Assembly: GCF_035084215.1 (NCBI RefSeq)
Contig: NC_090346.1
Location: 47,802,001 to 47,866,000 of the forward strand
Direction of reading: 5' to 3'
DNA length: 64,000 nucleotides
DNA from: Heptranchias perlo
Taxonomy: Eukaryota
A program made the position numbers and the translations under genes. A model generated the notes under the pieces. The model searched no databases and had not been told where the DNA came from. It saw only the letters and a program-made list of their open reading frames with translations. Positions within the stretch are counted from its first letter, which is position 1. Every line of letters begins with the position of its first letter. This document shows positions 1,147-61,368 of this stretch, one piece after another.

Positions 1147-1381
1147 ATTGTAAACAATTTTACAACACCAAGTTATAGTCCAGCAATTTTATTTTAAATT
1201 CACAAGCTTTCGGAGGCTTCCCCCTTCGTCAGGTGAACGATGTGAAAATCATCGTTCACCTGACGAAGGGGGAAGCCTCCGAAAGTTTGTGAATTTAAAA
1301 TAAAATTGCTGGACTATAACTTGGTGTTGTAAAATTGTTTACAATTGTCAACCCCAGTCCATCACCGGCATCTCCACATCA
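1147..1381. mobile_element. Fold-back Penelope-like element copy 1 with hammerhead motifs, inserted into a CR1 LINE
   Basis: About 96-bp inverted arms plus a 35-nt unpaired tail; TSD GAACTTTTATA at 1136-1146 and 1382-1392. Confidence 0.8.
1199..1237 (-). ncRNA. Minimal type I hammerhead ribozyme motif
   Basis: UUCAC CUGACGA A GGGGG aag CCUCC GAAA GC UU GUGAA; the + arm copy (1255-1293) has GAAAGUUU. Confidence 0.7.
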
Positions 1382-1804
1382 GAACTTTTATAAAGCACTG
1401 GTTCGGCCACAATAGGAGTATTGTGTCCAATTCCGGGCATCGCACTTTAGGAAGGATGTGAAGGCCTTAGAGAGGGTGCAGAAAAGATTTACTAGACTGG
1501 TTCTAGGAATGAGGGACCTCAATTATGTGGATAGACTGGAAAAGCTGGGGTTGTTCTCCTTAGAGCAGAGAAGGTTGAGAGGAGATTTGATAGAGGTGTT
1601 CAAAATCATGAGGGGTCTTGACAAAGTAAATAAAGAAAGACTGTTCCCACTGGCGGAAGGGTCACGAACCACAGGACACAGGTTTAAGGTGATTGACAAA
1701 AGAACCAAAGGCGACATGAGGAAAAACTTTTTTACGCAGAGTGGTTAGGATCTGGAATGCATTACCTGCAAGGTTAGTGGAAGCAGAGTCAATTGTGGCT
1801 TTCA

Positions 1805-2660
1805 AATAATGAAGCAGGCCATGCCTGCACGCAGCAAGACCTGGACAACATCCAGGCTTGGGCTGATAAGTGGTAAGTAACATTTGCACCAGACAAGTGC
1901 CAGGCAATGACCATCTCCAACGAGAGAGAGTCTAACCACCTCCCCTTGACATTCAACGGCATTACCATTGCCGAATCCCCCACCATCAACATCCTGGGGG
2001 TCACCATTGACCAGAAACTTAACTGGACCAGCCATATAAATACTGTGGCTACAAGAGCAGGTCAGAGGCTGGGTATTCTGCGGTGAGTGACTCACCTCCT
2101 GACTCTCCAAAGCCTTTCCACCATCTACAAGGCACAAGTCAGGAGTGTGATGGAATACTCTCCACTTGCCTGGATGAGTGCAGCTCCAACAACACTCAAG
2201 AAGCTCGACATCATCCAGGAGAAAGCAGCCCGCTTGATTGGCACCACTTCCACCACCCTAAACATTCACTCCCTTCATCACCGGCGCACAGTGGCTGCGT
2301 TGTGTACCATCCACAGGATGCACTGCAGCAACTCGTCAAGGCTTCTTCAACAGCACCTCCCAAACCCGCGACCTCTACCACCTAGAAAGACAAGGGCAGC
2401 AGGCACATGGGAACAACACCACCTGCACGTTCCCCTCCAAGTCACACACCATCCCGACTTGGAAATATATTGCCGTTCCTTCATCGTCGCTGGGTCAAAA
2501 TCCTGGAACTCCCTTCCTAACAGCACTGTGGGAGAACCGTCACCACACGGACTGCAGTGGTTCAAGTAGGTGGCTCACCACCACCTTCTCAAGGGCAATT
2601 AGGGATGGGCAATAAATGCTGGCCTTGCCAACGATGCCCACATCCCATGAACGAATTTTT
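1805..2660 (+). mobile_element. CR1/L2-group LINE 3' part nested in CR1
   Basis: RT C-terminal peptides QQDLDNIQAWADKW, STIYKAQVRSVMEYSPLAW, KSWNSLPNS; 3' tail gggcaataaatgctggcc. Confidence 0.85.
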
Positions 2661-4858
2661 AAAAAATTAGATAGGTACCTGAAGGAGAAAAATTTTCAGG
2701 GGGATGGGACTAGCTGGATTGCTCTTGTGGAGAGCTGTCTCAGGCTCGATGGGCCCAATGGCCTCCTCCTGTGCCGTAACCATTCTATGATTTAAAAATT
2801 TAAGCTACACCCTGAGACGCTGGCATTAATCTGTCAGCCTGACTTCTTATCGAATGCTTTGTCATTTTATTCTCCCGTTGCAGTTTGCCTTTCGACTTTT
2901 GCTCAACTCTCGTGATTTCCATTTTAGTATTTGTATCTTCAACAACATGCTCCAATTTTCTGATCCCTACTACTTCCTGTTAGATTAAGAATCCATTCTG
3001 GCCACAAACATTTGTTTACTTATCAAGAATTCAGAGCAGATTACTGAGACTTCGGTGTTCCACAGTTCTGCATTTTTAATTGGAGTGGGATATTTTCTAT
3101 AATGTTAGAATTTGCTATATTTTGGTAGTTTGTCAAGAAGGTAAAATGTATCATTTATGCAAAAGTAGCTGAGATTTGCAACTAAACGCGCTTCTTCAGT
3201 GGGTGCGATTAACAGTATTGGGAATTTGAATCTTCTATTCATTTTACTGGAGTTGACTATTTTGTTTAGATCTACAATATATTGAGTCAGTGAGGCTTAG
3301 GCCTTGCGTCATCCTTTTGTTTAGGCCTTTGGCTCAGCAGTAAGCAATTATTGAATTTCCTATCATCGCCCTTCCTGTTTCTCTTGTTGCAGTTTCTCAA
3401 TTAACCTCGCTCCAATTTTGTTTTCTTCTTAGCTTTACAATTTCCAAAGTCCATTACTTTAGTTGCATGGTTAGTTTCTGTTCATCCTTAATATTTTAAG
3501 TATTAACACTTTGATAACTCGTGCCTGAATGTTATTGAGCGTTTCTGACTCCGAACTAAATATGATGTTACGTCTGCCCTGGTGGACTAGTTCATGTATA
3601 GAATCAAAAAAACAGTCTTCGATCACCTGATTACACTTATTGCCTCTTCCTCCCTTCCCGTGCCTCAACAATTGGAAGAAAATATCTGTGACCGGGAACA
3701 TGCCAACAGAAGGAGCATTAGGCAGAATAACCTGTTCATATGGGTAGAATTTTTAAATACTGATTTTTTTTCATTTTTGTTTCGAATGAATAGTTTTTTT
3801 TTCACTCTCCTGGCCAATCTTCTCTCCTGAAGTTGCTGACCCCTCGCTGGGGTACAGTTCCATGTGCACACGGTGCCTCTCGGTATCTCGCCCAAGTGGG
3901 CGGGTTCTTCATGCATTAGCCTGGTGAGTGGGTGTGAGCAGGCTGCTTGCCCATGGAGGGTGTGGTCTGTGGCTGCGAGCTGTTGTCACTTAAAAGTCCC
4001 CACAATTCCAGTTGGGATCACTGGGAATTGACCAGGAGCAGCACCCCTGTCGGTTCTCCCCTCCCTAAACCGTAGGCACTGAGACCAGTTGTAGCACCTA
4101 CTGCTGCCCTGACTGGGATCGGTTAAGTAATGGCCGCATCTTAATTTCTTTAAACTTTGAAAGTAAATTGACTGACCGTCCCAATTACAGTGCAGATACT
4201 AATAACACACAACTGCTGTTAAATGTTTACATAGTGAGTAATCTGTATAAATGATAGTTATTTCCATTTTAAGTCTTGTATAGAAAAGCCTTTAGTCGTA
4301 GTCAATGATTGTCCACGTTTAAACAGAAACAAAAATGTAGCAGCTCCCAACATCTGCCTACTATACATTGCATTCTAAGTCTCCCTGTATGATTGTGATA
4401 TTAATACTGTGGATGATGCACCAGCTGACCCAGCGTGTTGGTACTCTCTGTGCGTGTCTAAACAAATTAGGATAAAAGTAGCCCTTGTATCAATATAGCC
4501 GGTCTAAAATTACTGCCCGGGGTCATTTGCTCATGCAATTGAAGCCTCCATGTCTGTTGCTATAAAGAACATGCTCAACGCGTCTGTCCATATAACTGTG
4601 ACTCTAGCTCCAGTGAAATCTAGGTTTTCCAATTGTAGCATCAATTGATGGGGGCGAATTGAAATTTTCAAGACCGAGATTGCTAGATTTTTGTTAGGTA
4701 AGCATATCAAGGGATATGGAGTTGAGGTACAGGTCAGCCGGGATCTAATTGAATGGGCTCGAGGGGTTAAGTGGCCGCCTCCTATTCCTATTTTGTCAGT
4801 TTGTACTGTCTGTGTTGCATTCACAATTGTCTTTTAATTTAATTACGCTTCGCTTTAG

Positions 4859-5090
4859 AGTTCTGGTGTCCTCCGAGACATCGTCATCAATGCCAGCCCT
4901 TCTGAGGTGCCGCTGTCGCTATTGGTCCTGCACAGTTTGCTGTGTGAGCAATACAGGGTGTTGTCTTCAGTGCACGTGCACTCCTCGGTGAAAAACAATC
5001 CAGCCCAACTCAGAAACTGTCTAGGCGAAGAAAGCAGCAGTCGGTCACGGCAGGAATATCAACTCGGCTTTACTGTCATCTGGAAGGATG
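4859..5090 (+). CDS. AIMP2: AIMP2 exon 3
   Basis: cgctttag|AGT...AAGGATG|gtgagg; 232 nt; [45 protein letters not shown]...[11 protein letters not shown]. Confidence 0.95.
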
Positions 5091-6011
5091 GTGAGGAGAA
5101 AATATTCGGTGGAGCTTTCCTGAAAACAAACTCAATTGTTGGAGTTTGGAAATAATTTTGTAAAACAAATCAAGCTCATTTCCTAACTTCTTTACAGTGT
5201 ACAGGTGGAAAATTTAGACTCTCTCCAGTGAAGACACTCTAGCCACGTTTGTCCCTTAAACAGTCAACTTGGAGCTCAAGTTTGCTCATTGCAATAAGAT
5301 TGTGCTCAGTTATTTAAAAGGAAATCTATAAATGTACCCGGGCAAACTAATACTGAAATAGGCTATTTTTATAAATGGCCTGGAAGGCAGAATATTGGCC
5401 AAGGTATCTGGGACAAAAGTGGGTGCAATGGCCAATGATACTGACCAATACGCAATAATCCAGAGAGACCTGGACAAGTTAAGATCAGTGGACAAAGGAT
5501 TAATTATGAATTCTTGAGATTTGGCAGAAGAAGCAGGCATATAAACTGTGCAATGAGTTTCCCTGAACTATGTGTTCTCTAACAGAATTTGGAGGGACAT
5601 AGCTGTGGAAGCTGGGATTGGTGCAGGAGGGTAATCTTTCAACGGTTGAGGCAGCGTAAGATTGCTGCTGATTCTAGCGTAGGCCCCGAAAGTACTCGAC
5701 AAGAGGTGTATTACCAGTCTCTTCTAGCAGCACGGTTATTGATTTTGAACATATAATCTATATGATGGATATTATAACGTGCTTTTATGGCAACATAACT
5801 ATTGGAGTAGCTGTTTCCTCACCAGTCAATCATTGATCTGGGTCCCAGGGCTGCCGGGTACTGACCCTGTCTGCCACATGTTGGTTTTCAGTTCTGACAT
5901 TAAGATAACAATGCAGTAAATCTGAATGGTGCAAGACTGAGGCTTGCCCGTATGTTTTAGATGGACCTGCTGGATGTGACAGTACAGTGGCTTTTGTGTT
6001 TTTTTTGGCAG

Positions 6012-6391: not shown

Positions 6392-6504
6392 ATGTTGTAG
6401 TGGAGGGGAAATTGTACTTTTTAAACCCTTTCCAGCTGATACCTGTATATTTAAATTGGGTCTTACTGTTTGCATATCTGAGGAAGTACCTATTTAAATC
6501 ATTT

Positions 6505-9189: not shown

Positions 9190-10089
9190 CTGAAAGTGGA
9201 GATAGAAACATAGACGTTACAACACGGGAACAGTCCATTCACCCCAACCAGTCCCTGTCGTCATTTACCCTCCACACCAGCAAATAGTTCCAATCGCATT
9301 TACCCACCGTGTCCCCATATCCCTTCAACCCCCTCTCCAATCTAACCTTGAATGTCAACAGTTTCTGCCTCAACCACTAACCCTGGAAGTGAATTCTGCA
9401 GCCTCACAACTCTGAAGAAGTTTCTCCTGCCCTCCGTTCTAAATCTCTTACATTTAATCTTGTATCTATGGTTAAAATTTGGTACAAAAAAACCCCATGG
9501 TGTGAGCCAGTGGCTTTCAAAGTTTTCTGCATGGAAGACTCCCTGTAAATGCTGACGCTGTCAGGGGAATCCCCTGTGCTAACTGCTGAAAGAACTTCAG
9601 GAAAACAGGGCCATCATTGCAGAAAACATTCTTATACAGGAACAGAAGTATACAAGTCAACAAATAAAGGGGAAAAAAATACAAAATAGGGAGTTCTTCA
9701 GATCTTGGTCTTGCAGATCCGATGTCCTCAGGTACCACAGACCCCAAGCTTAAAATCCATGGTGTAACCATTGCAAAATTACAATTAGAAGCCAGAATGG
9801 ATAGTTGCAAACTATGGGACGGAGAAGATTTAACTTTCGAATGTTCTCTCAATTTTAGAAGAGCAGCCATACATTTATTCAGGTTGTATTGTGCAGTCAT
9901 TTATCCAGCTGTAATATATTAATAATTTTATGTCCACACCTATCTCCTGTCTATTAAAACTTACACTTTTGTCAACTAAATTCCTATGTCCACATTTATA
10001 ATGATGTGGAGATGCCGGTGATGGATTGGGGTTGACAATTGTAAACAATTTTACAACACCAAGTTATAGTCCAGCAATTTTATTTTAAA

Positions 10090-10128
10090 TTCACAAGCTT
10101 TCGGAGGCTTCCTCCTTCGTCAGGTGAA
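10090..10128 (-). ncRNA. Minimal type I hammerhead ribozyme motif (sense in HRI pre-mRNA)
   Basis: UUCAC CUGACGA A GGAGG aag CCUCC GAAA GC UU GUGAA. Confidence 0.72.
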
Positions 10129-10195
10129 CGATGTGAAAATGAAATCCTCGAAATGAAAATGAAATCCTCATTTCGAGGATTTCATTTTCACATCG

Positions 10196-10234
10196 TTCAC
10201 CTGACGAAGGAGGAAGCCTCCGAAAGCTTGTGAA
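10196..10234 (+). ncRNA. Minimal type I hammerhead ribozyme motif
   Basis: Identical motif in the opposite arm. Confidence 0.72.
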
Positions 10235-10504
10235 TTTAAAATAAAATTGCTGGACTATAACTTGGTGTTGTAAAATTGTTCACATTTATAATGGCACCTG
10301 CCTATGTAAACTTGTCACGCTGTAATTATACCCTTCAGCCAATTGTCTCATCATTCCGCCCTCTAACCCTGTTTCACTGAAGACTACACTTGGTTTTGTT
10401 ACCCTCTGTACAAAACCAAGGGAGATCAAATAGTACAATTTTTTAAAAAAAGACTAATATTTCAATCCCAGTTAATCTGACGAAGGAAACCTTGCAGTTC
10501 CTCA

Positions 10505-10890
10505 ATCAATTAGGAACAAGGATCAGGAGGAGGCCATTCAGCCCCTCGAACCTGTTCCACCATTCAATTAGATTATGGCTGATCTGTATCTTAACTCTAT
10601 TTACCCGCCCTGGTTCCGTATCCCTTAATCCCCTTACCCTAACAAAAATCTATCAATCTCCGTTTTGAAATTTTCAATTGACCCCCAGCCTCAACAGCTT
10701 TTTGGGGGAGAGAGTTCCAGATTTCCACTCCCCTTTGTGTGAAGAAGTGCTTCCTGACATCACCCCTGAACGGCCTAGCTCCAATTTTAAGGTCATACCC
10801 TCCTTTGTTCCAGACTCCCCCCACCAGAGGAAATAGTTTCTCTCTATCTACCCCATCAAATCCTTTATGCATCTTAAACACCTCATTGAA
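10505..10890 (-). mobile_element. CR1 LINE 3' fragment
   Basis: EVFKMHKGFDGVDREKLFPL...FFTQRGVEIWNSLPQKAVEAG; close relative at 21385-21880 (-). Confidence 0.8.
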
Positions 10891-11559: not shown

Positions 11560-11639
11560 CTTGAAATCATAGTGCGAGCCTCTCAGTTGTTCGGGGGAAG
11601 CATACAGACGAGTCCCCACTCCTGAGGTGTGCTTTGAAT
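11560..11639 (-). CDS. EIF2AK1: EIF2AK1 exon 13 (activation segment)
   Basis: ctcccag|AT...AAG|gtacag; SKHTSGVGTRLYASPEQLRGSHYDFK. Confidence 0.95.
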
Positions 11640-13760: not shown

Positions 13761-13764
13761 ATAG

Positions 13765-14290
13765 AATCATAGAATGATACAGCACAGAAGAAACATAAGA
13801 AATAGGAGTAGGAGTAGGCCGTATGGCCCCTCGAGCCAGCTCCGCCATTCAATAAGATCATGGCTGATCTTTGACCTCAACTCCACTTTCCTGCCCGATC
13901 CCCATATCCCTTGATTCCCCTTGAGTCCAAAAATCTAGTGTTCTCAGTCTTGAACATACTCAATGACACAGTATTAACAGCCCTTTGGAGTAGAGAATTT
14001 CAAATATTCACGACCCTCTGAGTGAAGAAATTCCTCCTCATCTTCGTCCTAAATGTCCGACACCTTATCCTGAGACTATGCCCCCTAGTTCTAGACTCTC
14101 CAGCCGGGGGGGAACAACCGCTCAGCATCTACCCTGTCAAGCCCTCTTAGAATCTTTTATGTTTCAATGAGATCACCTCTCATTCTTCTAAACTACAGGG
14201 AGTACAGGCCCGTTCTACTCAATCTCTCCTCATAGGACAACTCTCTCATCCCAGAAGGAGGCCATTCAGCCCATCATACCTATGCCAGCT
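13765..14290 (-). mobile_element. CR1 LINE 3' fragment
   Basis: Reverse complement of the CR1 3' UTR and ORF2 end; similar copy at 16045-16480 (-). Confidence 0.8.
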
Positions 14291-16044: not shown

Positions 16045-16480
16045 GAACATAAGAAATAGGAGCAGGAGTAGGCCATACGGCCCCTCGAGCCTGCTCCGCC
16101 ATTCAATCAGATCATGGCTGATCTTCGACCTCAACTCCACTTTCCTGTCTGATCCCCGTATCCCTTGATTCCCCGAGAGTCCAAAAATCTATCCATCTCA
16201 GCCTTGAATATACTCAATGACTGAGCATCCACAGCCCTCTGGGGTAGAGAATTCCAAAGATTCACAACTCTCTTCATGAAGAAATTCCTCCACATCTCAG
16301 TCTTAAATGGCCGACCCCTTATCCTGAGACTATGCCCTCTAGTTCTAGACTCTCCAGCCAGGGGAAATGGCCTCTCAGCATCTACCCTGTCAAGCCCCCC
16401 CTCATAATCTTATATGTTTCAATGAGATCACCTCTCATTCTTCTAAACTCCAGAGAGTATAGGCCTTTCTTACTCCTCAG
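16045..16480 (-). mobile_element. CR1 LINE 3' fragment in ANKRD61 intron 1
   Basis: aagaacataagaaataggagcaggagtaggcc... CR1 3' end. Confidence 0.8.
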
Positions 16481-17784: not shown

Positions 17785-18135
17785 ACTCCAGTGCCGTACT
17801 GAGGGAGTGCTGCACTGTCGGCGACGCCCTCTTTCCAATGAGACATTAAAACGAGGCCCCGTTTGCCCTCTCAGGTGGACGTAAAAGATCCCACATCACT
17901 ATTTCGAAGAAGAGATGGGGAGTTCTCCCTGGTGTCCCTCAACCAATATCACTAAAACAGATTTATCTGGCCGTTATTACATTGCTGTTTGTGGGATCTT
18001 GCTGTGCGCAATTTGGCTGCTGCATTTCCTACATTACAACAGTGACTACACTTCAAAAGTACTTAATTGGCTGTAAAGCGCTTTGGGACATCCTGAGGTT
18101 GTGAAAGGCGATGTATAAATGCAAGTCTTTCTTTC
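17785..18135 (+). mobile_element. Deu-domain SINE, inverted relative to the 17153-17600 copy
   Basis: Same family in the opposite orientation. Confidence 0.78.
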
Positions 18136-18180
18136 CTTTAAAAATTCTCACGGATTTTGTTCTTTCTTTCTTTGCCTTAG

Positions 18181-19204
18181 GGACATGAGAGGTCGAACGG
18201 CGCTGCATCTCATCGTAATGCACTGGCCCAACATAGTCCGAGACTGGATCGTACCAAAGACCAAGTTCGAGAAAGCCATGGCGGCCATGCAGAGCCGGGC
18301 GGAATCCTGCCTGCGCCTGCTGTGCCTGTACGGGGCGCAGGTCAACGCGGTGACCCAGGGCGGCAGCCGGGACACGGCCATGCACCTGGCCGTGCGCCAC
18401 GGAGCCTGGCCGGCGGTGGGCATCCTGGCGCGGCATGGAGCCGACCTGGAGGCGGCCGACCAGCACGGCCTGACCCCGCTGCACATGGCCAGCGGCGTCC
18501 TGGACCGGCGCATGACTGAGGAGCTGCTGGGCCGGGGGGCGCGGGTGGACAGCCGGGTGGCGAGCAGCGGCAGCACGCCCCTCCAGCTGGCCGTGCGCGC
18601 CGCCTCCGGCAAGGGCGGGCAGACGCTGGGCGCCGGCCTGGGCTGCGTGAGGGCGCTGCTGGGCCGGGGGGCGGACGTGGACGCCCGGGACCGCCGGGGT
18701 CGAGCCGCGGTGCACGACGCCTGCTTCGGCGGCCGGGAGGAGGTGGTGGACCTGCTGCTGGAGCACGACGCCGATCTCAACCTGCGGACCGGGCTGGGCG
18801 AGACCCCCCTCTCCCTCTTCCTGGAGCGCCGGCCCAACCTCGGGTGCGGCCGCCTGCTGGCTAAGCTGCTCAGCCTCTCCTGCCCGCCGCGGCTCACCGG
18901 CGCCAAGGGGCTGCCGGGCGGGCTGCTGCGGCCCGAGTACCGCCGGCACAAGGAGTTCCTGCTGGCCCTGAGCCGCGAGCCCCCAGCGCTCCGGGACTTC
19001 TGCCGCGTGGCGGTCAGGAAGGTCTACGGCCACAGGCACGGCCAGCGCCTGAAGCAGCTTCTGCCCACGCTGGTCTGGCAGTTCGTGTACGGTTACCAGG
19101 ACTACACCGAGCGGCTGGGGGAGATCGCGGCGACCCAGCAAAACGGGCCGGACTTCGAGGGTCAAGGAGAGCTGGACGAGAACCTGCTCCACATGCACCT
19201 CTGA
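18181..19204 (+). CDS. ANKRD61: ANKRD61 exon 3 (multiple ankyrin repeats, SOCS-box-like C-terminus)
   Basis: gccttag|G GAC...TGA; GRTALHL, DTAMHLA, GLTPLHMA, GSTPLQLA, GETPL ankyrin motifs; nested position matches the known EIF2AK1/ANKRD61 arrangement; spliced ORF 427 aa. Confidence 0.88.
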
Positions 19205-20878: not shown

Positions 20879-21384
20879 CTAAGACACACAAAAAAAGTAA
20901 CATGTCCAATTTTAACCCGTCCTCTGGCTGATTACAAGACCCATTCAGGGACAAGGTGAAGCTCAATGTAACGGGATGCTCCCAAGTCTACTTAATTTTA
21001 ACGCGTCTTTTGCTGACTGAGAATTACACACACACATCCAGGGACGAGGGGACCTCCAGGCAGCTGAATCATCTCCGTTTAGTGGCAAAAATGCTCCAGG
21101 ATTGTCTAACAGGACAGGGGTTTGCCTACTTTAATCAGACTAACAACAATCAGTACTGCAAGCGCCCCCTTTAAGAAGGGAACACCAAACATAACCTGCA
21201 GTTGGACAAAACCAACGTTAGTTTTTCTTTTCTTTCACCCTGTCCCCAAGTTTCCCAACTTTGATTTCGAGAGTCGCCCCAGCTAATAAAATAAGTCAGG
21301 TCACAGGAGACCACGACGAGCACTCACGTGACTCAAACCCATGCAAATCTGACCGTCAACAACAAACCGTCAACAGTGACGTTA

Positions 21385-21880
21385 CATAGGAACAGGAGGA
21401 GGCCATTCAGCCCATTGAGCTTGTTCCGCCATTCAATTGGATCATGGCTGATCTGTATCTTACCTCTATTTACCCGCCTTGGTCCCGTAACCCTTAATCC
21501 CCTTACCCAACAAAAATCGATCAATCGCAGTTTTGAAATTTTCAATTGACCCCCAGCCTCAACAGCTTTTTGGGGGAGAGAGTTCCAGATTTCCACTCCT
21601 CTTTGTGTGAAGAAGTGCTTCCTGACATCACCCCTGAACGGCCTGGCTCTAATTTAAAGGTTATTCCCCCTTGTTCTGGACTCCCCCCCCACCAGAGGAA
21701 ATAGTTTCTCTCTATCGACCCTATCAAATCCTTTAATCATCTTAAACACCTCAATTAGATCACCCCCTTAATCTTCTATACACAAGGGAATTCATTCCTA
21801 GTCTACGCAACCTGTGCTCATAATTTAAACCTTTTTAGCCCTGGCATTGTTCTGGTGAATCTGCTCTGCACCCCCTCTTG
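21385..21880 (-). mobile_element. CR1 LINE 3' fragment
   Basis: WNSLPQKAVEAG peptide and CR1 tail. Confidence 0.8.
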
Positions 21881-22310
21881 AGGTGCTGTTAATAGGTTTC
21901 AAATTCAACATTTTACAATACTCCACTTTCACCAGTTGGACTTGTGTTCATTTAAGTTACGGAAAGTACAAGTTACAAATTGGCATCATCATTACTTTGG
22001 TAAAACCACTAGTGCCAAGAACTTGGGGGAATGATAAAGATTCTGCCCAACTCAGGGGTTGGGTGGTGCAGCGGGGCCCAGGTTTGAACCCAGCCTCCTC
22101 GTTCTGCTGATGTAACCTTCCCATTTGAAGTGATTTTGGATAATCTAAACTGAGTTCTCAGTGGGTTTGAAACCCATAGCATAAAAATGTCCTTATCTAC
22201 ACATTAACAGTCAATTCCACTCAGAGGGCTGGTGCGGAAAAATGGAAATGTCACACTGGTACAGGAGGGGCACTGATTTAAAGTTGGGGCTAAGTCACAT
22301 GGAAGAGCAA

Positions 22311-22600
22311 CAGGGAGCTTCACTCTGTATCTAACCCATCTTGTACCTGACCCCGGGAGTGTTTGATGGGACAGTGTAAAGGGAGCTTCACTTTGTATCT
22401 AACCCATCTTGTACCTGAACCCGGGAGTGTTTGATGGGACAGTGTAAAGGGAGCTTCACTTTGTATCTAACCCATCTTGTACCTGAACCCGGGAGTGTTT
22501 GATGGGACAGTGTAAAGGGAACTTTACGCTGTACCTAACCCATCTTGTACCTGAACCCGGGAGTGTTTGATGGGACAGTGTAGAGGGAGCTTCACTCTGA
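22311..22600. repeat. 68-bp tandem repeat, about 4.3 copies
   Basis: Unit gggagcttcactttgtatctaacccatcttgtacctgaacccgggagtgtttgatgggacagtgtaaa starting at 22313, 22381, 22449, 22517, 22585. Confidence 0.9.
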
Positions 22601-22700
22601 AAAGCATTCCTTTCCTTATGTTGAATTCCAAAAAAAAACATTCTAAAGCGACAAAGATAATCATGCTGGAAATCCTTCCCAAGGTATGCTGCTTCCTCAC

Positions 22701-23196
22701 CTTGGACTCGGGGTACGCATCTGTGAATGACGAGCCATCCTCTGAACTTGAACTACTGTTCACGTAGACAGACGAACCTGAAATCTCCTCGACAGCACCG
22801 GTAACTCCCTCCTGTTCCGTGTCGAGGTCTTGCATATCCGCCTCCATTGCTTCAACTAATGGGTCCAATTTGTTCCTTTTGTCGGGGGACATTAGGAGCT
22901 CGGAGCTCGCACCTGTGCCACTGTGAACAGACACACTCTTCGAATAAAAAGGTGAAGAGTGCACCTTGAGACCCTTCACTCCCGCCAATAAACGGCTCCT
23001 GGTTTTTAGATGGTTTGCACCATAGTCTTCATTGTGGAAGGAAATCACATTGTCATTTTCTTTTGAAATGCTCATGCACGTCTCTTCCTCGGCTGGTTTT
23101 CTCCCTGACAAAGTCTCTCCCATTCTGGCAAAAGGACCGGAGTCCGCAAAAATTATACTTGAGCCACTGGTTTCTGTGTTGCGGATGGAAGGGTCC
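22701..23196 (-). CDS. EIF2AK1: EIF2AK1 exon 9 (kinase insert)
   Basis: ttccacag|G GAC...AAG|gtgagg; 496 nt, phases fit both neighbours; DPSIRNTETSGSSIIFAD...SSSSSEDGSSFTDAYPESK. Confidence 0.85.
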
Positions 23197-23364
23197 CTGT
23201 GGAACACAGTTTGATACCTTAGTTCTACAAGTTTTAAGCCATCAACTGAATAAAACTAACCTTAATGACCAGGAAAAAAAAAGTTATACATATGCTTCCA
23301 AAAGTACCAAAGTGTATTTGGACCATAAATCCTCTAGACTGAAGTTCTAGCCCTACCTCTCATA

Positions 23365-24094: not shown

Positions 24095-25280
24095 TTATAG
24101 AATCATACAGCACCAAAGGAGGGCATTCGGCCCATCGTGCCTGTGCCGACTCTGTGCTGTACGTTCTTTGTAATTCTTTATAGGGTTAGATGAAGAAGGG
24201 AGGGAGGAGCACAAACACCGGCATGGACCTGTTGGGCCGAATGGCCTTTTTCCATGCTGTATGTTGTTTGCAATTCTTTGAAAGAATTATCAAAATAGTC
24301 CCACTCCCCTGCTCTTTCCCTATAACCCTGCAAATTTTTCCTTTTTAAGTATTTAAACAATTCCCTTTTGAAAGTTTTTATTGAATCTGCTTCCACCGCC
24401 CTTTCAGGCAGGGCATTCCAGATCATCACAACTCACTGCATAAAAAAAACTCTCCATCTCCCCCTCTGGTTCTTTAGCCAATTACCTTAAATCTGTGTCC
24501 TCTGGTTACTGGCCCTCCTGCCAGAGTAAATAGGGAGAAGCTGTTTCCACTATCAAAATCCCTCATAACTTTGAACACCTCTATTAAATCTCCCCTTAAC
24601 CTTCTCTACTGTAAAGCAGAACAATCCCCAGCTTCTCCGGTCTCTCCACATAATGTTTCTTTTTACTTTAGCATCATTGCACCTAATTCCAGTCAACAGA
24701 TTCTTACCTGTAATCTTCCTGACCAGAGGGACCCTTCAAGGCACATAAATTACCGCAAGGCATTCGATTACCTAAACAGCGCAATCAAAGGAAGAGGCAT
24801 TGGTTAAGATGTGATAATGAAAGGTCGTTGGGGGGATAGGAACATAGGAACAGGAGGAGGCCATTCAGCCCCTCGAGCCTGTTCCGCCATTCAATGAGTT
24901 CATGGCTGATCTGTATCCTAACTCCATCCACCCGCTTTGGCTCCACATCCCTTAATACCCTTGGCGAGCAAAAATCTATCGAACTCAGATTTAAAATTAT
25001 TAATTGAGCATCTACTGCTTTTTGTGGGAGAGTTCCACACTTCTACCACCCTTTGCGTGAAAAAGTGTTTCCTAACTTCTCTCCTGAATGGCCTGGCTCT
25101 GATGTCTTCTTGTCCTAGACTCCCCCAGCAGTGGAGAAAGTTTCTCTCTCTCTACCCTATCAATTCCTTTCAAAATCCTAAGAACCTCAATCAAATCACC
25201 CCTTTACCCTTCTACATTCCAGGGAATACAAGCCGAGTTTATGTAATCTCGCCTCATAATTTAACCCTTGGAGCCCTGGT
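24095..25280 (-). mobile_element. CR1 fragments flanking EIF2AK1 exon 8 (about 24095-24650 and 24835-25280)
   Basis: IWNALPERAVEADSIKTFKREL and CR1 3' UTR motifs. Confidence 0.75.
24708..24771 (-). CDS. EIF2AK1: EIF2AK1 exon 8
   Basis: tgtttag|GT...TACAG|gtaaga; 64 nt, phase 1 to 2; NRMPCGNLCALKGPSGQEDYR. Confidence 0.75.
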
Positions 25281-30813: not shown

Positions 30814-30981
30814 ACTTGAACAGGCTCGTGGAGCGCTGAGGATTTCTCTCATAAACGAAGCAGAGATGTTCCAGGAGCGAGACCAACAGCAGCTGGTTGG
30901 GAACGGCGACTGTGAAGTCCATCAGCGTCGGGACTGTTCGGTTACAATCCGCGAGACCGCACTCCTCCAACAGATCGGATT
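30814..30981 (-). CDS. EIF2AK1: EIF2AK1 exon 2
   Basis: attgcag|AA...AAGT|gtaaga; ESDLLEE...DFTVAVPNQLLLVSLLEHLCFVYERNPQRSTSLFK. Confidence 0.95.
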
Positions 30982-31658
30982 CTGCAATTGGGGGGCGGGG
31001 GGGGGAGAAAATCATAGAATTTACAGCACAGAAACCGACCTTGTGGTAGCAACTTCCACATTCCAACCACTCTCTGGGCAAAGAAGTTCTACCCTAGTCT
31101 TCATCTTCCTCTCCCCCACCCTTCCTGAGAGACGACTCCTGCCAGGATACGGTTCCCCACAGGTGTCTGACCTGAGTGGCCAACAGATTATATAACCTAG
31201 ACTGCAAGAGGCAGTAGGTGTTGTGAACACGAGAGCAGGAGGCCTTACACCCAATCCAAATCCTGTCCTCCTGAAACGCGACATACTTCACACTGGATAG
31301 CAATCTGGAGCATAAACCCGTGGCCAATTTACTTTTCCTAGCCAGGAGCAAAAAAAAACCCAGTAGTTTAAAAAAAGTTTTAAAAAGGGTTATACAAGAT
31401 TGGCTGCCACGTTCCCCTACATTACAACAGCGGAAAAAAAACACTTATCTGGCTGTAAAGCACTTTGGGATGGTCTGAAAGGTGCTTTAGAAATGGAAAT
31501 ACAAGTTCTCCCTCTCTTACTAAACACAGAATTGCACCCAGCACAGAAACAGGCCATTCGGCCCATCTGGTCCATGCTGCACACGAGCCTCCTCCCACCA
31601 GCATGTCCTTGTGTTCCTTGCACCCTCGTGTGATTATCCAGCTTCCTCTTGCACCATT

Positions 31659-31746
31659 AATTGTAAACAATTTTACAACACCAAGTTATAGTCCAGCAAT
31701 TTTATTTTAAATTCACAAGCTTTCGGAGGCTTCCCCCTTCGTCAGG
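31659..31746. mobile_element. Penelope-like element copy 3 (single arm, truncated), EIF2AK1 intron 1
   Basis: Identical to the left arm of copy 1 up to GTCAGG, then breaks into a G-run repeat; hammerhead stem I 5' strand lost. Confidence 0.75.
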
Positions 31747-31855
31747 ACGGGGGGGGGGGGGGGCCGGTGTGGTTGGGTTTGAGCCCCGGGGGGGGGGGTG
31801 GTTGGGTTTGAGCCCCCGGGGGGGGGGGTGTGGTTGGGTTGAGCCCCGGGGTGAG
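31747..31855. repeat. G-run tandem repeat (tgtggttgggtttgagcccc-Gn) x3
   Basis: Directly visible. Confidence 0.8.
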
Positions 31856-31925
31856 GAGCCGCTCTGCCCTGGGACCGAGTGTTGCATCAGTCCGGGCGGT
31901 GAGCGAGTCTGGAGCCGGCACTCAC

Positions 31926-32139
31926 CGTCGAAAGCAGCCGGGCCTTCCTGCGGGAAGCTGATGGCCAGTTTCGCCCGGGGCTGCTCCGTGTCATCGCTGG
32001 TGTCCCGCGGGGGGAAGACACCGGGACAGCCCGAGCCCCGAGACCACCCGGCTCCGCTCAGCATCGGGGAGAGGAGAGGCGCGTCTGCCGGCAGCGCTTC
32101 CGAGTCACCCGGCACCCGGGGACCAGGACCGGGGACCAT
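31926..32139 (-). CDS. EIF2AK1: EIF2AK1 exon 1 coding part (start at ATG 32139 or the in-frame ATG 32064, MLSG...)
   Basis: GC-rich; ends AISFPQEGPAAFD G|gtgagt, similar to HRI AIDFPAEG...D; the start codon is ambiguous. Confidence 0.8.
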
Positions 32140-32189
32140 CGCCACTCAGAGAGCGGCAGCGGCTGTCAATCAACAGACAGAGCCGGCCC

Positions 32190-32795
32190 AGAGCTACTGC
32201 TCAGGGAGGGAGGGAGAGATACTGCTCATAGAGAGAGAGGGGGAAGAGGAGAGAGTTACTGCTCAGGGAGGGAGGGAGAGGGGAGTTACTGCTCTCTGAG
32301 GGAGGGGAGAGATACTGCTCACAGGGGGAGAGGGGGGGGAGGGAGAGGGGAGAGGGGGGGGGAGGGAGAGGGGAGAGGGGGGGGAGGGAGAGGGGGGGGG
32401 AGGGGGAGAGGGGGGGGGAGGGAGAGAGGGGGGGGGAGGGAGAGAGGGGGGGGGAGGGGGAGGGAGAGAGGGGGGGGGAGGGGGAGGGGGAGGGGGGAGA
32501 GGGAGAGAGGGGGGGGAGGGGGAGGGGGAGAGGGAGAGGGGGGGGGGAGGGGGGGGAGAGGGGGGGGGGAGAGGAGAGTGTTACTGCTAGAGAGAGGAGG
32601 AGGGAGGGAAGAGAGAGGAGGAGGAGGAGGGAGGAGGAGGAGGAGGAGGGGGGAGAGGAGAGAGTTACTGCTCAGAGAGGGAGGGAAAGAGTGTTACTGC
32701 TCGGAGGAGGAGAGGAGGAGGAGGAGGGGAGTTACTGCTCGGGGAGAGGGAAGAGGAGAGAGTTACTGCTCTCTGAGGGAGAGGAGAGAGTTACT
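32190..32795. repeat. Polypurine (G/A) tract with interspersed GAGTTACTGCTC units
   Basis: About 250 bp of pure G/A (32323-32577) flanked by about 10 copies of (GA)GTTACTGCTC. Confidence 0.9.
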
Positions 32796-32807
32796 ACCAT
32801 TCAGAGA

Positions 32808-32949
32808 TATTTTAAATTCACAAGCGTTCACCTGAGGAAGGAGGAAGCCTCTGAAAGCTTGTGAATTTAAAATAAAATTGCTGGACTATAACTTGGTGTT
32901 GTAAAATTGTTTACAATTGTCAACCCCAGTCCATCACCGGCATCTCCAC
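32808..32949 (+). mobile_element. Penelope-like element copy 4 (short inverted arm, full arm and tail), upstream of EIF2AK1
   Basis: TSD ACCATTCAGAGA at 32796-32807 and 32950-32961; hammerhead motif at 32827-32865 (CUGAGGA...GAAA GC UU). Confidence 0.8.
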
Positions 32950-33929
32950 ACCATTCAGAGAGATAGTGGTCTCAGGGAGAGCTACTGGCAACTCAGAGAG
33001 CTAACCCTAATGCAGCCATTCAAAAAAAAGGTGCATTTATATAACACCTTTTACAACCTCAGGACGTTCCAAAGCACAATACAGGCAATGAAGTGCAGTC
33101 AATGTTGTAATGTGCAAAACACAGCAAGGTCCCACAAACAGCAATGTGATAATGACCAGATAAACTGTTTTAGGTGTTGGTCGAGGGAAATAGTGTCATG
33201 GGATCTTTTACATCCACCATTGAAAATATATCACCGTTCCTTCATCGTCGCTGGGTCAAAATCCTGGAACTCCCTTCCTAACAGCACTGTGGGAGAACCT
33301 TCACCACACGGACTGCAGCGGTTCAAGGAGGCGGCTCACCACCACCTTCTCAAGGGCAATAAATGCCGGCCTCGCCAGCGACGCCCAGATCCCATAAACA
33401 AATTAAAAAAAACACTTGAGAGGGTGGATGGGGCCCCGGTTTAATGCACAGAGATTCCTTAAAAGCCACAATCCAATGCTATCAGCCAGAGCATTACCCA
33501 ACGTTGTTAGGCCTGTGCTATGCCCCTCCCCTCTGGTCTGCCAGAGGCCGGGACCCACCAGCAGGCAAAGCCTTGCATTCCAAAACTCAGGTTTGCATTT
33601 CACAGTTTTACAAGATCAAAAGACCCCACACTGTCAAACTCCAGCAGGCCCCTGGCCTGTTTCCCAGTGCTACCAAGGCACAGGACCATTCCATAGTACT
33701 AGTAAAGCAAAGATTATGTGCCAAAATCTCTGGAGTGGGACCTGAACCCACAACCTTATGATTCAGATTGCTACCAACTCAGACAGGCTGACAGAAATTG
33801 GTCTGGTCTAATTTTATCATCTTATTATCTATCCTCTTCCTCCCCAGTTCTATTCTTGAGGCCATTTATAGCGCTTGCCCCAGTGTCCCCTCTCCCATCG
33901 GCAACAGCACTTGATCATCTTGCAGTATT

Positions 33930-34390
33930 CTCCTCCCAGCGAGGGTGGCGCTGCCGCGACGATGCAGTGTTCTCCTCCTACCGGCGGTGGCGCTGCCGCG
34001 ACGATGCAGTGTTCTCCTCCTACCGGCGGTGGCGCTGCCGCGACGATGCAGTGTCCTCCTCCTACCGGCGGCGGCGCTGCTGCCGCGACGATGCAGTGTC
34101 CTCCTCCCACCGGCGGGGGCGCTGCCGTAGCAATGCAACATCCTCCTCCCCCCACCGGCGCTGCCCTAGCAATGCAACATCCATCTCCCACCGGCGGCGG
34201 CGCTGCTGCCGCGACGATGCAGTGTCCTCCTCCCACCGGCGGCGGCGCCGCTGCCGCGACGATGCGGTGTCCTCCTCCCCACCGGCGGTGGCGCTGCTGC
34301 CGCGACGATGCGGTGTCCTCCTCCCCACCGGCGGGGGCGCTGCCGTAGCAATGCAGTGTCCTCCTCCCCACCGGCGGCGGCGCTGTCCCT
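33930..34390. repeat. GC/CpG-rich 39-46 bp minisatellite, about 10 copies
   Basis: Unit ccggcggtggcgctgccgcgacgatgcagtgttctcctccta (42 bp). Confidence 0.9.
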
Positions 34391-34399
34391 CCACCTCCC

Positions 34400-54997: not shown

Positions 54998-55869
54998 GTA
55001 CTGGAATTCATTATTCTTTGCTAGCTGCTATGATTTTCTTTTTTAAGATGCGATTTTCTCTCTCTGTTTGTACAGCATTTCCCATGAGCGGGTCTTGTTC
55101 TTCACAATCCAGAAGTGCTCTTCCTTCAAGCTCTTGCCTTGCAGAGGCGACAATGCCCAGAATGAACAGTGGCTCTAATCGTTGTAAACTATGCACTAGA
55201 CTTTATGGAGGCATAAAGCCTGTGTCTTCAGACTGTTGAGTAGACATAGACATAGAAAATAGGAGCAGGAGTAGGCCATTCAGCCCTTCGAGCCTGCTCT
55301 GCCATTCAATATGACCATGGCTGATCCTCTATCTCAATACCATATTCTCTCTCCCCATACTCCTTAATGCCTTTTTAAAGGCTAATATTCCATTAATCTT
55401 TTAAGATTTTTTTTAAGCATATGAATACTTCATGTCTTTGGATCTAATTCATTTGTCTGCTATTTTAATGGAGGCATTAATGTATTTATTTGCACAAGTT
55501 AATGCCTCTAAGAATTACAAATGAGTAGACAGATCACAACATTTGCAGGCTAAAATTATGATATTTACAAATTGAAGCACACATGGAAACATGAATATTA
55601 TATCTATCTTAATATTAAGGCGCGGCCAATATATCTCTCACAGCAATATTCTTGTAATTGCAATGTAGCGAGTCCAGTAAAGCATCAAATTGCTATCACA
55701 GCTTTTCTCCAGCAAAATTAGTCTTGTATCTCACAAAAATCAAATCTCCAGCAGCACGGACTTAGCTGCAGAAACTCCTCTGCAATGACTGTCTTCTCAG
55801 CAGTTCCGATTCCTGAACAGCCAACAGTTCAGTCCAGATGTCAGAATAGCATTTTGAAGAAAGAATATT

Positions 55870-56165
55870 TATTTGTCAAAAAAGCATATGGGATCCTTGG
55901 CTTTATAAATAGAGACATAGAATACTTTAGAAGCAAGGAAGTTATTAGGCCTCAGGTGTGGAGTATTCTGTCCAATTCTGGGAACCACATTTTAGGAAGG
56001 ATGAGAGTGCAGTAGAGATTTACCAGAATGATACCTGAGATGAAGAGGAAAAATTTGCAGGACTATGGGGAAAGAACAGTGGAGTGGGACTAATTGGATA
56101 GCTCTTTCAAAGAGCTGGCACTGGGATGATGGGCTGAATGGCCTCCTTTGTGCTGTATGCTTCTA
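55870..56165 (+). mobile_element. CR1 fragment with internal deletion
   Basis: KKAYGILGFINRDIEY joined directly to the CR1 3' UTR. Confidence 0.65.
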
Positions 56166-56858
56166 TTTTGGCATGCAACAATGGCACAATAATTCTAAAA
56201 TACTATATCATATTATAGATAAGTAGCAAGGAATTTAGACACATTGGCCAGAATCAAATGTCAGACAACACACACTGTAAACACAGTGGCCAGTAAATCT
56301 TTGCAAATTTCCATAAGATGTCGCAAGTCGTCTTTTGCTTTTATCACAATTTGTGACACAAGTTGCACTAACTTAGCGGATGACATCTGTTATGAAAAGT
56401 CTGGAAACTAAAAGTTTGTACAGGAATTACAATATAATGGTGTAAATCTAATATGAGTTGGGTGGGGCGAAGGTACATGCTTTGTTTCGCATTGAAAACC
56501 CCGTAAATATTAGCTTATGACCAAAGGATGTGTTTTTGTTTTGCTGGTTAGATTCCAGAGCCAAGTTCTGATCGTGTTTACACTGCTTTCATTATTATAA
56601 CTGTTTGGATTACGGACCAGTTTGGTTACTGGTGATTTATGTGCTGTAATTCAACTTTATTTTGCACATGAATTTTTATGGAATTCAGTTTTAAGTTTAA
56701 AGCTTGAAAGACCAGCTATAAAATCCAAAATGCTTAATTATGTACGTGTTTTATTTAGAAATATTCTAAAATATGTTTAGTTTTTTTTTGAAAGCATTCC
56801 CGATGGAAAACTTTACCTGTCTTACAATTATCTGTGAAAAATATGAATTCATTTTTAG

Positions 56859-56941
56859 ACTGCACCAAACATCACAAAAGCACTTGAGCAGTTTGTAAAG
56901 CCTGAGCAGCTGGATGGTGAAAATGCCTACAAATGCACCAA
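56859..56941 (+). CDS. USP42: USP42 coding exon 7
   Basis: ttttag|ACT...CCAA|gtgagt; TAPNITKALEQFVKPEQLDGENAYKCT. Confidence 0.95.
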
Positions 56942-59149: not shown

Positions 59150-60710
59150 TTTTTATTCGTTCATGGGATGTGGGCGTCGCTGGCAAGACCAGCATTTATT
59201 GCCCATCCTTAATTGCCCTTGAGAAGGTGGTGGTGGTGAGCCGCCTTCTTGAACCGCTGCAGTCCATGTGGTGATGGTTCACCCACAGTGCTGTTAGGTA
59301 GGGAGTTCCAGGATTTTGACCCAGCGACGATGAAGGAACGGCGATGTATTTCCAAGTCGGGATGGTGTGTGACTTGGAGGGGAACGTGCAGGTGGTGTTG
59401 TTCCCATGTGCCTGCAGCCCTTGTCCTTTTAGGTGATAGAGGTCACAGGTTTGGGAGGTGCTGTCGAAGAAGCCTTGGCGAGTTGCTGCAGTGCATCCTG
59501 TGGATGGTACACACTGCAGTCACGGTGCGCCGGTGGTGAAGGGAGTGAATGTTTAGTGTGGTGGATGGGTGCCAATCAAGCGGGCTGCTTTGTCCTGGAT
59601 GGTGTCGAGCTTCTTGCAGGCAAGTGGAGAGTATTCCATCACACTCCTGACTTGTGCCTTGTAGATGGTGGAAAAGCTTTGGGGAGTCAGGAGGTGAGTC
59701 ACTTGCCACAGAATATTCAGCCTCTGACCTGCTCTTGTAGCCACAGTATTTATATGGCTGGTCCAGTTAAGTTTCTGGTCAATGGTGACCCCCAGGATGT
59801 TGATGGTGGAGGATTCGGCGATGGTAATGCCGTTGAATGTCAAGGGGAGGTGGTTAGACACTCTCTTGTTGGAGATGGTCATTGCCTGGCACTTGTCGGG
59901 TACGAATGTTACTTGCCACTTATGAGCCCAAGCCTGGATGTTGTGCAGGTCTTGCTGCATGCAGGCACGGACTGCTTCATTATCTGAGGGGTTGCGAATG
60001 GAACTGAACACTGTGCAATTATCAGTGAACATCCCCATTTCTGACCTTATGATGGAGGGATGGTCATTAATGAAGCAGCTGAAGATGGTTGGGCCTAGGA
60101 CACTGCCCTGAGGAACTCCTGCAGCAATATCCTGGGGCTGAGATGATTGGCCTCCAACAACCACGACCATCTTCCTTCGTGCTAGGTGTGACTCCAGTCA
60201 CTGGAGAGTTTTCCCCCTGATTCCCATTGACTTCAATTTTACTAGGGCTCCTTGGTGCCCTAGTAAAATTGATGTCAAGGGCAGTCACTCTCACCTCACC
60301 TCTGGAATTCAGCTCTTTTGTCCATATTTGGACCAAGGCTGTAATGAGGTCTGGAGCTGAGTGGTCCTGGCGGAAACCAAACTGAACATCGGTGAGCAGG
60401 TTATTGGTGAGTAAGTGCCGCTTGATAGCACTGTCGTTGACACCTTCCATCACTTTGAAGATTGAGAGTAGACTGATGGGGCGGTAATTGGCCGGATTGG
60501 ATTTGTCTTGCTTTTTGTGGACAAGGCATACCTGGGCAATTTTCCACTTTGTCGGGATGAGGACGAGGTCAAGTGTTGGTTCACTCACCACCTGCCGCAG
60601 GCCCAGTCTGGCAGCTATGTCCTTCAGGACTCAGTCAGTAGTGGTGCTACCGAGCCACTCTTGGTGATGGACATTGAAGTCCCCAGAGTACATTCTGTAA
60701 CCTTGCTACC
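59150..60710 (-). mobile_element. Same CR1/L2-group LINE family, about 1.5 kb with a degenerate RT domain
   Basis: NPANYRPISLLS, QFGFRQDHSAPDL, GVPQGSVLGPTIFSCFIND, with frameshifts; short copies at about 7355-7460 (-) and 33225-33405 (+). Confidence 0.9.
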
Positions 60711-61125
60711 CATTCTCTAGTGTTATTTACTGTACCATGGCATCTAGTAGCCCTTTCCAGATAAATCGTTGTAGATCACATTCACGATCCCTTCCAAGGA
60801 CCAGCATACACTTATTCATTGCCTCCGAGACAGGCCCCGGTGTAAGTTCATAAGGGTTAATTATTCAATTTAAGCAGTGTCTGGGTTGATCCATTCATGG
60901 TTATTTGTTGAACTTTGTCCTTCACTGGTGTAGCGTTTTGGCAAGCAATGAGGCAACGGAAAGCAGCCTATAATTCAACAATTTTGTATTGTTCCCGAAA
61001 GGCAAAGGAGTAAAGCCTCGAGAAATACAAAACGTTCTACTCAAACACTATTTCCCAACCCTGGGGCTCCCTTTCCATTGCAGGTAGTGCGTTGTAATTT
61101 TTTTTCCCTGAATAACTTGCTATAG

Positions 61126-61368
61126 TGTGGAGATGCCGGTGATGGACTGGGGTGGACAAATGTAAGGAATCTTACAACACCAGGTTATAGTCCAACAAAT
61201 TTATTTTAAAATCACAAGCTTTCGGAGATTATCCCCTTCGTCAGATGAATGAGTGAAAAGGAGAACCTTTTCACTCATTCATCTGACGAAGGGGATAATC
61301 TCCGAAAGCTTGTGATTTTAAAATAAATTTGTTGGACTATAACCTGGTGTTGTAAGATTCCTTACATT
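61126..61368. mobile_element. Fold-back Penelope-like element copy 5 (different subfamily), USP42 intron
   Basis: Perfect inverted arms about 100 bp, tail on the left; TSD TAACTTGCTATAG at 61113-61125 and 61369-61381. Confidence 0.82.
61279..61315 (+). ncRNA. Minimal type I hammerhead ribozyme motif (mirror copy on - strand at 61212-61248)
   Basis: UCAU CUGACGA A GGGGA uaa UCUCC GAAA GC UU GUGA. Confidence 0.7.

Follow-up and report, generated by a model that had tools for sequence, protein, structure and literature searches.

Following an earlier sequence-only reading, a 64,000-nucleotide stretch of the genome of the sharpnose sevengill shark Heptranchias perlo (NC_090346.1, positions 47,802,001 to 47,866,000; hereafter the window, with positions counted from its first letter) was analyzed on both strands. 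Five loci, numbered copies 1 to 5 by position, carry related short insertions. These are probably very short, 5′-truncated insertions of an endonuclease-bearing Penelope-like element (PLE) with at least two subfamilies, in which only the 3′ end of the pseudo-long terminal repeat (pLTR), with its hammerhead ribozyme motif and tail, was copied. Candidate membership is based on four end features found at these loci: a minimal hammerhead, a one-sided tail, an inverted copy, and variable 5′ truncation with a target-site duplication (TSD). The Penelope-like origin suggested by the sequence-only reading is supported by this end structure, including the spacing of its parts.

Independent insertions with inverted arms

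When a tailed arm was compared with the window by BLAST, eight long matches were obtained (84-100% identity, E ≤3e-25), all within the five loci. One extra 22-nt match corresponded to a short inverted arm of copy 4, and window matches outside the five loci all had E ≥0.26. BLAST and sequence inspection together confirmed the five related insertions at the places given previously. A head-to-head inverted, 5′-truncated layout was found in four of the five copies. The three described as near-perfect hairpins with arms of about 100 bp and a tail on one side proved to be so: copies 1, 2, and 5 have arms of 102, 120, and 104 nt, complementarity of 97-100%, and loops of 7, 11, and 4 nt. An unpaired tail of 32-35 nt is present, on one side only, in all three hairpins and in copy 4, and is absent from copy 3. 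Copy 4 carries an 18-nt inverted arm that had not been listed before, and copy 3 is a lone arm.

Exact TSDs flank copies 1, 2, 4, and 5 (12, 13, 12, and 13 bp, respectively). Their AT content is 58-83%, and the chance of such a duplication is ∼1e-4 to 4e-4 per site. Four distinct TSDs had been claimed; all four differ, as stated, but their lengths are 12-13 bp and not 11-13 bp. No TSD of at least 7 bp was found at copy 3, and the flanks of the five copies did not match one another. The distinct TSDs and the few differences between copies support the proposal of independent, recent insertions. Copy 1 interrupts a fragment of a CR1-like long interspersed nuclear element (LINE), the reading frame of which is in phase on both sides when one TSD copy is counted; this continuity independently supports a true insertion. 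An empty-site check was uninformative, since the only paralogous LINE spanning the site of copy 1 (55875-56018) is deleted there.

Copy 1 lies between TSDs at 1136-1147 and 1382-1393. Its inverted, short-end arm (1148-1249, minus strand) ends 56 nt past the predicted cut and extends 7 nt further 5′ than its partner, leaving the loop at 1243-1249; it contains a perfectly matching minimal hammerhead (1199-1237, minus strand; C3 at 1232, predicted cut after 1204). The tailed arm, representing the 3′ part of the pLTR (1250-1346, plus strand), contains a hammerhead with C16.2>U (1255-1293, plus strand; C3 at 1260, predicted cut after 1288) and is followed by an unpaired AC-rich tail of 35 nt (1347-1381, plus strand) that ends 93 nt past the cut. 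Copy 2, between TSDs at 9991-10003 and 10281-10293, consists of a tailed arm on the minus strand (10004-10167; tail at ∼10004-10036, hammerhead at 10090-10128, C3 at 10123, predicted cut after 10095) and a short-end inverted arm on the plus strand (10168-10280; hammerhead at 10196-10234, C3 at 10201, predicted cut after 10229).

Copy 3 is a single short-end arm (31659-31746, minus strand) that ends 1 nt upstream of C3 and has no 5′ strand of stem I, no tail, and no TSD. Copy 4, between TSDs at 32796-32807 and 32950-32961, has its 18-nt inverted arm at 32808-32825 (minus strand), complementary to 32857-32874, and a tailed arm at 32825-32949 (plus strand) with a C11.1>U hammerhead at 32827-32865 (C3 at 32832, predicted cut after 32860), which ends 89 nt past the cut. 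Copy 5 belongs to a divergent subfamily and lies between TSDs at 61113-61125 and 61369-61381. Its tailed arm (61126-61265, minus strand; tail at 61126-61157, hammerhead at 61212-61248, C3 at 61244, predicted cut after 61216, 4-nt loop at 61262-61265) is joined to an inverted arm identical to it (61266-61368, plus strand; hammerhead at 61279-61315, C3 at 61283, predicted cut after 61311).

Minimal hammerhead motif

A descriptor of the minimal type I motif was used, comprising the core, an optional extra base, helix II, GAAA, a palindromic helix III, UH, and helix I. It gave seven matches in the window, all within these insertions and accounting for seven of the eight long arms, against a mean of 0.01 expected by chance per 64 kb (100 dinucleotide shuffles). 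The minimal type I hammerhead with palindromic helix III recognized in the sequence-only reading is thus supported. In copy 3, which supplies the eighth long arm, the sequence ends one base short of the core. The reading had placed a full hammerhead core in each complete arm, which agrees with the descriptor but not with the exact letters, found in only three of the eight long arms; four others carry wobble variants. In the right arm of copy 1, C16.2>U turns the palindrome into a G-U version, and in both arms of copy 5, stem I has only 4 bp and is closed by U-G.

As regards the ability of the core and helices I and II to form, 98.1% of 108 cells were paired. Stems I and II were present in the minimum-energy fold of three of the four isolated tailed arms (z scores of −2.0, −2.6, and −1.2), and stem I was missing from that of copy 5 (z = −0.4). 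An Rfam scan gave no hammerhead family up to E = 5; seven of its 13 matches were below-threshold microRNA-hairpin matches on copies 1 and 2. This result was not counted against the hammerhead, because helix III is missing from minimal motifs.

The motif fits the metazoan PLE minimal hammerhead consensus of PMC4209133 in the extra nucleotide after A9, G10.1-C11.1 at the base of helix II, the palindromic two-base helix III (15.2-16.2), the AU-rich 3′ flank, CUGANGA, GAAA, and a helix I of 4-5 bp. It differs from that set in its 5-bp helix II with a 3-nt loop and in its cleavage triplet, CUU. On visual comparison, helix I is the same as in the lamprey and sea-urchin motifs linked to PLEs, and the painted-turtle motif is similar in its GAAA-GCUU core and flanks. 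The 56-motif alignment of that study (supplement file 2) contains no match to "shark" or "Callorhinchus".

In the 3′ part of the arm (1305-1381; 61126-61200), a nested stem-loop spanning the short end was observed, with one compensatory pair between subfamilies. As a predicted fold, it could possibly be a protein-binding or initiation structure.

End positions and apexes

Relative to the predicted cut, the tailed arms end 89, 90, 91, and 93 nt downstream and the short arms 51, 56, 57, and 58 nt downstream (four arms each). The 3′ ends therefore fall in two clusters, and the 5′ stops are variable, lying 1-46 nt upstream of C3 in all eight long arms, each of which spans the predicted cut site. 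Stops this close to the hammerhead, within 46 nt in every long arm, are the one unusual feature of these insertions.

Hairpin centers differ among the four inverted copies (1, 2, 4, and 5), which have loops of 7, 11, 31, and 4 nt. In the three full hairpins, the stop points of partner arms are 4-13 nt apart. Microhomology at the apex amounts to 0-2 nt, short microhomology being seen in copies 2 and 4, and in copy 1, each arm contains sequence not shared with the other. In copy 2, the apex (10133-10190) also contains a direct repeat (20-nt period) ahead of the point of fold-back, which may stem from the source element or from reverse transcriptase (RT) slipping back and copying again.

Over 80 nt, the arms of a single copy differ at 0, 0, and 1 positions. 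Copies of the main subfamily differ from one another at 0-4 positions and from copy 5 at 11-14. Accordingly, both arms of a copy come from one template, the copies are young, and at least two source subfamilies exist. Four different apexes, together with this likeness of partner arms, indicate that the hairpin was made anew at each insertion and not copied as a unit, in line with the inverted-pLTR pattern known from PLEs. The description of a family of fold-back elements is therefore not supported in that form: the four centers differ, and each arm is at least as similar to its own partner as to any other copy. The pattern in the window fits a separate non-coding derivative and ordinary 5′-truncation of a full-length PLE alike. 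With five copies per 64 kb, the Poisson range of the density is ∼25-180 stubs per Mb.

Comparison with known elements

Minimal hammerheads, tails, and inverted arms have been described at PLE ends in many animals, and as an annotation the present case is ordinary. The PLE layout, as described in the relevant portion of Craig et al. 2021 (PMC8557442), comprises an inverted 5′-truncated copy and a one-sided tail of 30-40 bp. For rotifer PLEs, the corresponding part of Arkhipova et al. 2013 (PMC3846280) gives TSDs of 8-10 bp and head-to-head arms, with self-priming proposed. The shark copies resemble insertions of endonuclease-bearing PLEs with an inverted pLTR and tail (Penelope/Poseidon, Neptune) in the head-to-head 5′-truncated copy, the tail at one end, the TSD, the hammerhead within the repeat, and the small apex. 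In contrast to the insertions in the portions of these accounts used here, they have nothing between the inverted repeats, neither an open reading frame (ORF) nor a second direct pLTR, and their TSDs are 12-13 bp versus 8-10 bp in the rotifer examples given in PMC3846280.

A close parallel is offered by Poseidon_Ac (PAc), a PLE of Anolis carolinensis, as characterized in the sections drawn upon of Frangieh et al. 2024 (PMC11167929). There, reverse transcription begins internally at two sites, one on either side of the tail, and mainly 111-118 nt into the ORF; since the hammerhead cut is at 26, the main start lies 85-92 nt from the cut. In vitro, the PAc enzyme nicks both strands of its target, preferably AT-rich DNA, extends them, and uses uncut RNA; its hammerhead cleaves only when the protein is present. 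Shared features are the two end sites bounding an AC-rich tail, the distance of ∼90 nt from the cut to the main end, AT-rich targets, and copying through the uncut hammerhead. Unlike PAc, the ORF of which begins at stem II in the text cited, the shark arms have no start codon in the hammerhead and contain stops in all three sense frames, so that any ORF would have to start elsewhere.

In being short and non-coding, with a type I hammerhead and a probable PLE pLTR origin, the copies are similar to animal non-LTR retrozymes as presented in the parts cited of PMC7229834 and bioRxiv 10.64898/2026.07.22.740005, in which retrozymes are also reported from one chondrichthyan. Retrozymes, however, form head-to-tail tandem units and circular RNAs and have canonical hammerheads in the extracts used of the 2020 paper, whereas the shark copies are head-to-head, bear one hammerhead per strand, and are not of unit length; head-to-tail tandem units with a complete hammerhead were found in none of the five copies. 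In Schistosoma, motif pairs lie 100-700 bp apart on opposite strands (PMC4209133). PLEs have been reported in sharks (whale shark, PMC8455134), and general background was taken from portions of PMC2377424, PMC6431247, PMC8969392, and PMC4350176.

Proposed mechanism and alternatives

In the proposed mechanism, a PLE protein would nick mostly AT-rich DNA with a stagger of 12-13 nt, corresponding to the TSDs. Reverse transcription would start at the tail end, ∼90 nt downstream of the cut site, where the tailed arms end and where, by analogy, the anole element would place it. Copying would run through the uncut hammerhead and halt 1-46 nt upstream, at the observed stops. The 3′ end of the complementary DNA (cDNA) would then fold back on a microhomology of 0-2 nt and copy itself as far as the second end site, ∼35 nt short of the tail. 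The product would be the head-to-head hairpin with a one-sided tail that is seen in the window, and the copies would be dead stubs.

For the inverted arm, fold-back of the cDNA end is the route leaned towards, with some reserve. Priming from both target strands, in which a dimeric PLE protein would nick both strands and prime cDNAs from the tail end and the short-end site, joined head-to-head thereafter, is held to be somewhat unlikely. It would suit the anole enzyme, which acts on both strands by cleavage and extension and has two initiation sites, one at each end of the tail (as set out in the cited part of PMC11167929), as well as the private sequence on both arms of copy 1 and the occurrence of the short end alone in copy 3. 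Independent cDNAs need not stop together, yet the paired arms do so within 4-13 nt in all three full hairpins, and the apex microhomology of copies 2 and 4 fits self-priming; both observations favor fold-back. Against fold-back stands copy 1, where a single event would need a later 7-nt deletion at the apex to account for the private sequence of both arms. A unit-length fold-back DNA element, such as a miniature inverted-repeat transposable element or Foldback, with the arms as terminal inverted repeats, is highly improbable and largely refuted. The near-perfect inverted arms reaching the TSD on one side, the small size, and the high density would suit such an element, but the tail is one-sided, the four centers differ, the TSDs are of 12 or 13 bp, symmetric terminal inverted repeats are lacking, copies with a single arm or an 18-nt arm exist, and a PLE-type hammerhead is present.

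The template of the insertions was weighed separately. A dedicated short non-autonomous RNA (∼140-170 nt, pLTR-derived, SINE-like (resembling a short interspersed nuclear element) or retrozyme-like), mobilized in trans by a PLE protein, with the hairpin still made at each insertion, is a doubtful alternative. In its favor, the 5′ ends of the eight long arms all fall 1-46 nt upstream of C3, and the window has no copy that is longer; the density is high; and non-autonomous pLTR derivatives are described in the parts cited of PMC8557442 and bioRxiv 10.64898/2026.07.22.740005. The 5′ stop points all differ, however, giving no common start; tandem units of the retrozyme kind are absent, and no transfer RNA gene was detected in a search of the window. 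Strong 5′-truncation is moreover normal for PLEs in the accounts cited, and RT stalling after a structured region would cluster the ends likewise. The clustering at 1-46 nt could thus come from RT stalling or from a short non-autonomous template. That the repeat is unrelated to PLEs and the hammerhead match coincidental is hardly credible: only 0.01 matches are expected per 64 kb, and tail, inversion, TSD, and spacing match PLE ends independently. On the side of coincidence are the lack of an Rfam hammerhead match, the non-significant core conservation and covariation with two lineages, and the fact that the motif is known from sequence alone.

Several further points weigh against the assignment to truncated PLE copies. 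No GIY-YIG match was found by Pfam among 154 ORFs of the window (13 + 141, that is, 153 listed stop-to-stop ORFs of at least 75 amino acids and the ANKRD61-like ORF described below; the list excludes ORFs confined to 31.8-35 kb or 18.0-19.4 kb), and RT was matched in the window only by two LINE-looking ORFs (59.5-60.6 kb). The frame that ends at the tail gave no match in protein searches (word-indexed proteins of 315-2000 and 98-314 amino acids; phmmer on 31 residues; ∼15 residues per query from the element), and no bacterial or archaeal genome was matched in either of two exact DNA scans made to detect host carry-over. These negatives concerning ORF linkage are weak, because the shark genome, which is the right database, lay outside the search and truncated copies are not expected to carry an ORF. 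The turtle motif, the closest one, is itself not tied to a PLE ORF in PMC4209133. The core is free of the 11 differences that separate the subfamilies over 80 nt, which is not significant (p ∼0.17), and covariation is weak, with two compensatory pairs (one in helix II, one in the short-end stem-loop), a number reached by 36 of 500 shuffles. Preferential conservation of the core across subfamilies, named in the sequence-only reading as a test, was accordingly not significant with these two lineages, and selection on the hammerhead motif is suggestive only. The confinement of all arms to within 46 nt of the hammerhead appears tighter than would be expected from random truncation. Finally, the equation of the anole site at 111-118 with the tail-distal end is an interpretation of the published text and an analogy.

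Host genes and other features of the window

Exon-bearing frames in the window matched GST_C and Thioredoxin_16 (AIMP2, plus strand), HRI2_3H and Pkinase (EIF2AK1, minus strand), and UCH (plus strand). The genes called AIMP2 and USP42 here are presumed to be these from the domains together with known motifs and synteny; neither name was given by any search. Copies 1, 2, and 5 are all bracketed by canonical GT/AG junctions. The AIMP2 intron holding copy 1 separates the exon ending at 596 from that starting at 4859; copy 2 is in EIF2AK1 (minus strand), in an intron separating the kinase exons near 11600 and 9190; and the USP42 intron with copy 5 is flanked by exons near 56940 and 63685. Copy 3 lies in EIF2AK1 intron 1, downstream of the exon 1 donor near 31925 and upstream of the frame of the next exon near 30900, the acceptor of which was not located. 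Copy 4 is in a GA-rich stretch adjoining GC-rich sequence; EIF2AK1 exon 1 is on one side of it and the USP42 start codon (42931) on the other, so that it is probably part of a shared EIF2AK1/USP42 promoter region. Placement in the AIMP2, EIF2AK1, and USP42 pre-mRNAs, as put forward previously, therefore holds for copies 1, 2, 3, and 5 but not for copy 4, which is intergenic and not demonstrably in a pre-mRNA.

Copies 3 and 4 (31652-32955) are arranged head-to-head, 1.08 kb apart, flanking EIF2AK1 exon 1. In a transcript containing the two, base pairing over 88 nt would be possible. A 7-bp sequence to the left of copy 3 recurs to the right of copy 4, probably by coincidence or target preference. 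A single 1.3-kb insertion with captured DNA, considered for this head-to-head pair with its outer 7-bp repeat, was rejected, as copy 4 has its own 12-bp TSD.

Nested in an EIF2AK1 intron, on the opposite strand, is an ANKRD61-like ORF of 361 amino acids (18119-19204, plus strand). It showed 100% identity over 94% of its length to Heptranchias perlo ankyrin repeat domain-containing protein 61-like, the next matches being from other sharks (74-81%). A young LINE-like element is present in two copies that are 93-94% identical (1802-2585, plus strand, and 59229-60630, minus strand), the second with RVT_1 matches. Each lies ∼0.4-0.5 kb from a hairpin copy, with differing offsets and unrelated flanks. 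A tandem array with 68-nt spacing (22244-22651) overlaps a frame (22524-23255) that is open on the same strand as EIF2AK1, and seems to lie at the edge of a kinase-insert exon. Between EIF2AK1 and USP42, a GC-rich tandem repeat of 42-45 nt was found at 33886-34385, with long GA-rich low-complexity sequence nearby at 32200-32790. Older dispersed repeat families, probably LINE or SINE 3′ ends, occur at 10508-10885, 13792-14091, 16046-16345, 21377-21753, 24835-25103, 55250-55351, and 61967-62044.

Ribozyme state and double-stranded RNA

It had been suggested that any transcript crossing an insertion in either direction gains a hammerhead and its antisense. This is upheld as regards a long double-stranded RNA (dsRNA) hairpin, for three of the five copies, but the hammerhead is probably inactive. 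Whichever way a full hairpin is read through, the antisense arm precedes the hammerhead in the transcript. Forcing the hammerhead fold was computed to cost 63-70 kcal/mol over the hairpin for copies 1, 2, and 5 on both strands, and 16 kcal/mol for copy 4; in natural transcript context, the hammerhead fold was computed not to be accessible. Each strand of a hairpin bears one motif only, so that no tandem dimer forms in cis, and of the published minimal motifs, monomers are inactive and dimers weak (PMC4209133). For these reasons, the hammerheads are probably silent where they sit, and no meaningful cleavage of host pre-mRNA would be expected. A two-arm cofold, in which the helix III dimer was not the best fold, was uninformative.

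By computation, dsRNA stems of ∼100 bp in host pre-mRNA would sequester the hammerhead. A dsRNA role of the hairpin copies is plausible by analogy with Drosophila, in which Penelope inverted repeats yield small interfering RNAs (siRNAs) according to the part cited of Evgen'ev 2013 (PMC3681739). Both cases involve inverted arms that arise from transposition and give dsRNA on read-through; siRNAs were measured in Drosophila, whereas processing of the shark dsRNA is predicted only.

Implications

In the open-access literature, with Repbase and Dfam outside the search, no account of this shark family or of pLTR-only hairpin insertions was found, and the shark hairpin-stub family may be undescribed in detail. 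How PLEs form their tails and inverted repeats is stated as unresolved in the portion cited of PMC8557442. The short copies display the TSD, both ends, and the apex in <300 bp, so that genome-wide counts could separate fold-back from two-strand priming. If the density in the window is typical, many perfect dsRNA stems would be present in shark pre-mRNAs. Neither of these two points of value, end formation and dsRNA stems, is unique to this window.

More speculatively, and with more doubt than assent, the minimal hairpin and not the transposon copy might be the dominant PLE product in this shark, through a short pLTR RNA or RT stalling past the hammerhead, followed by fold-back at nearly every insertion. 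The genome would then be seeded with ∼25-180 stubs per Mb, most of them perfect 100-bp stems. Transcribed within introns, the stubs would act as a built-in source of self-silencing (siRNA, ADAR substrate) and at the same time mask the ribozyme, which would make them a shark analog of inverted Alu pairs. They would also provide a very large natural data set on the formation of PLE tails and inverted ends.

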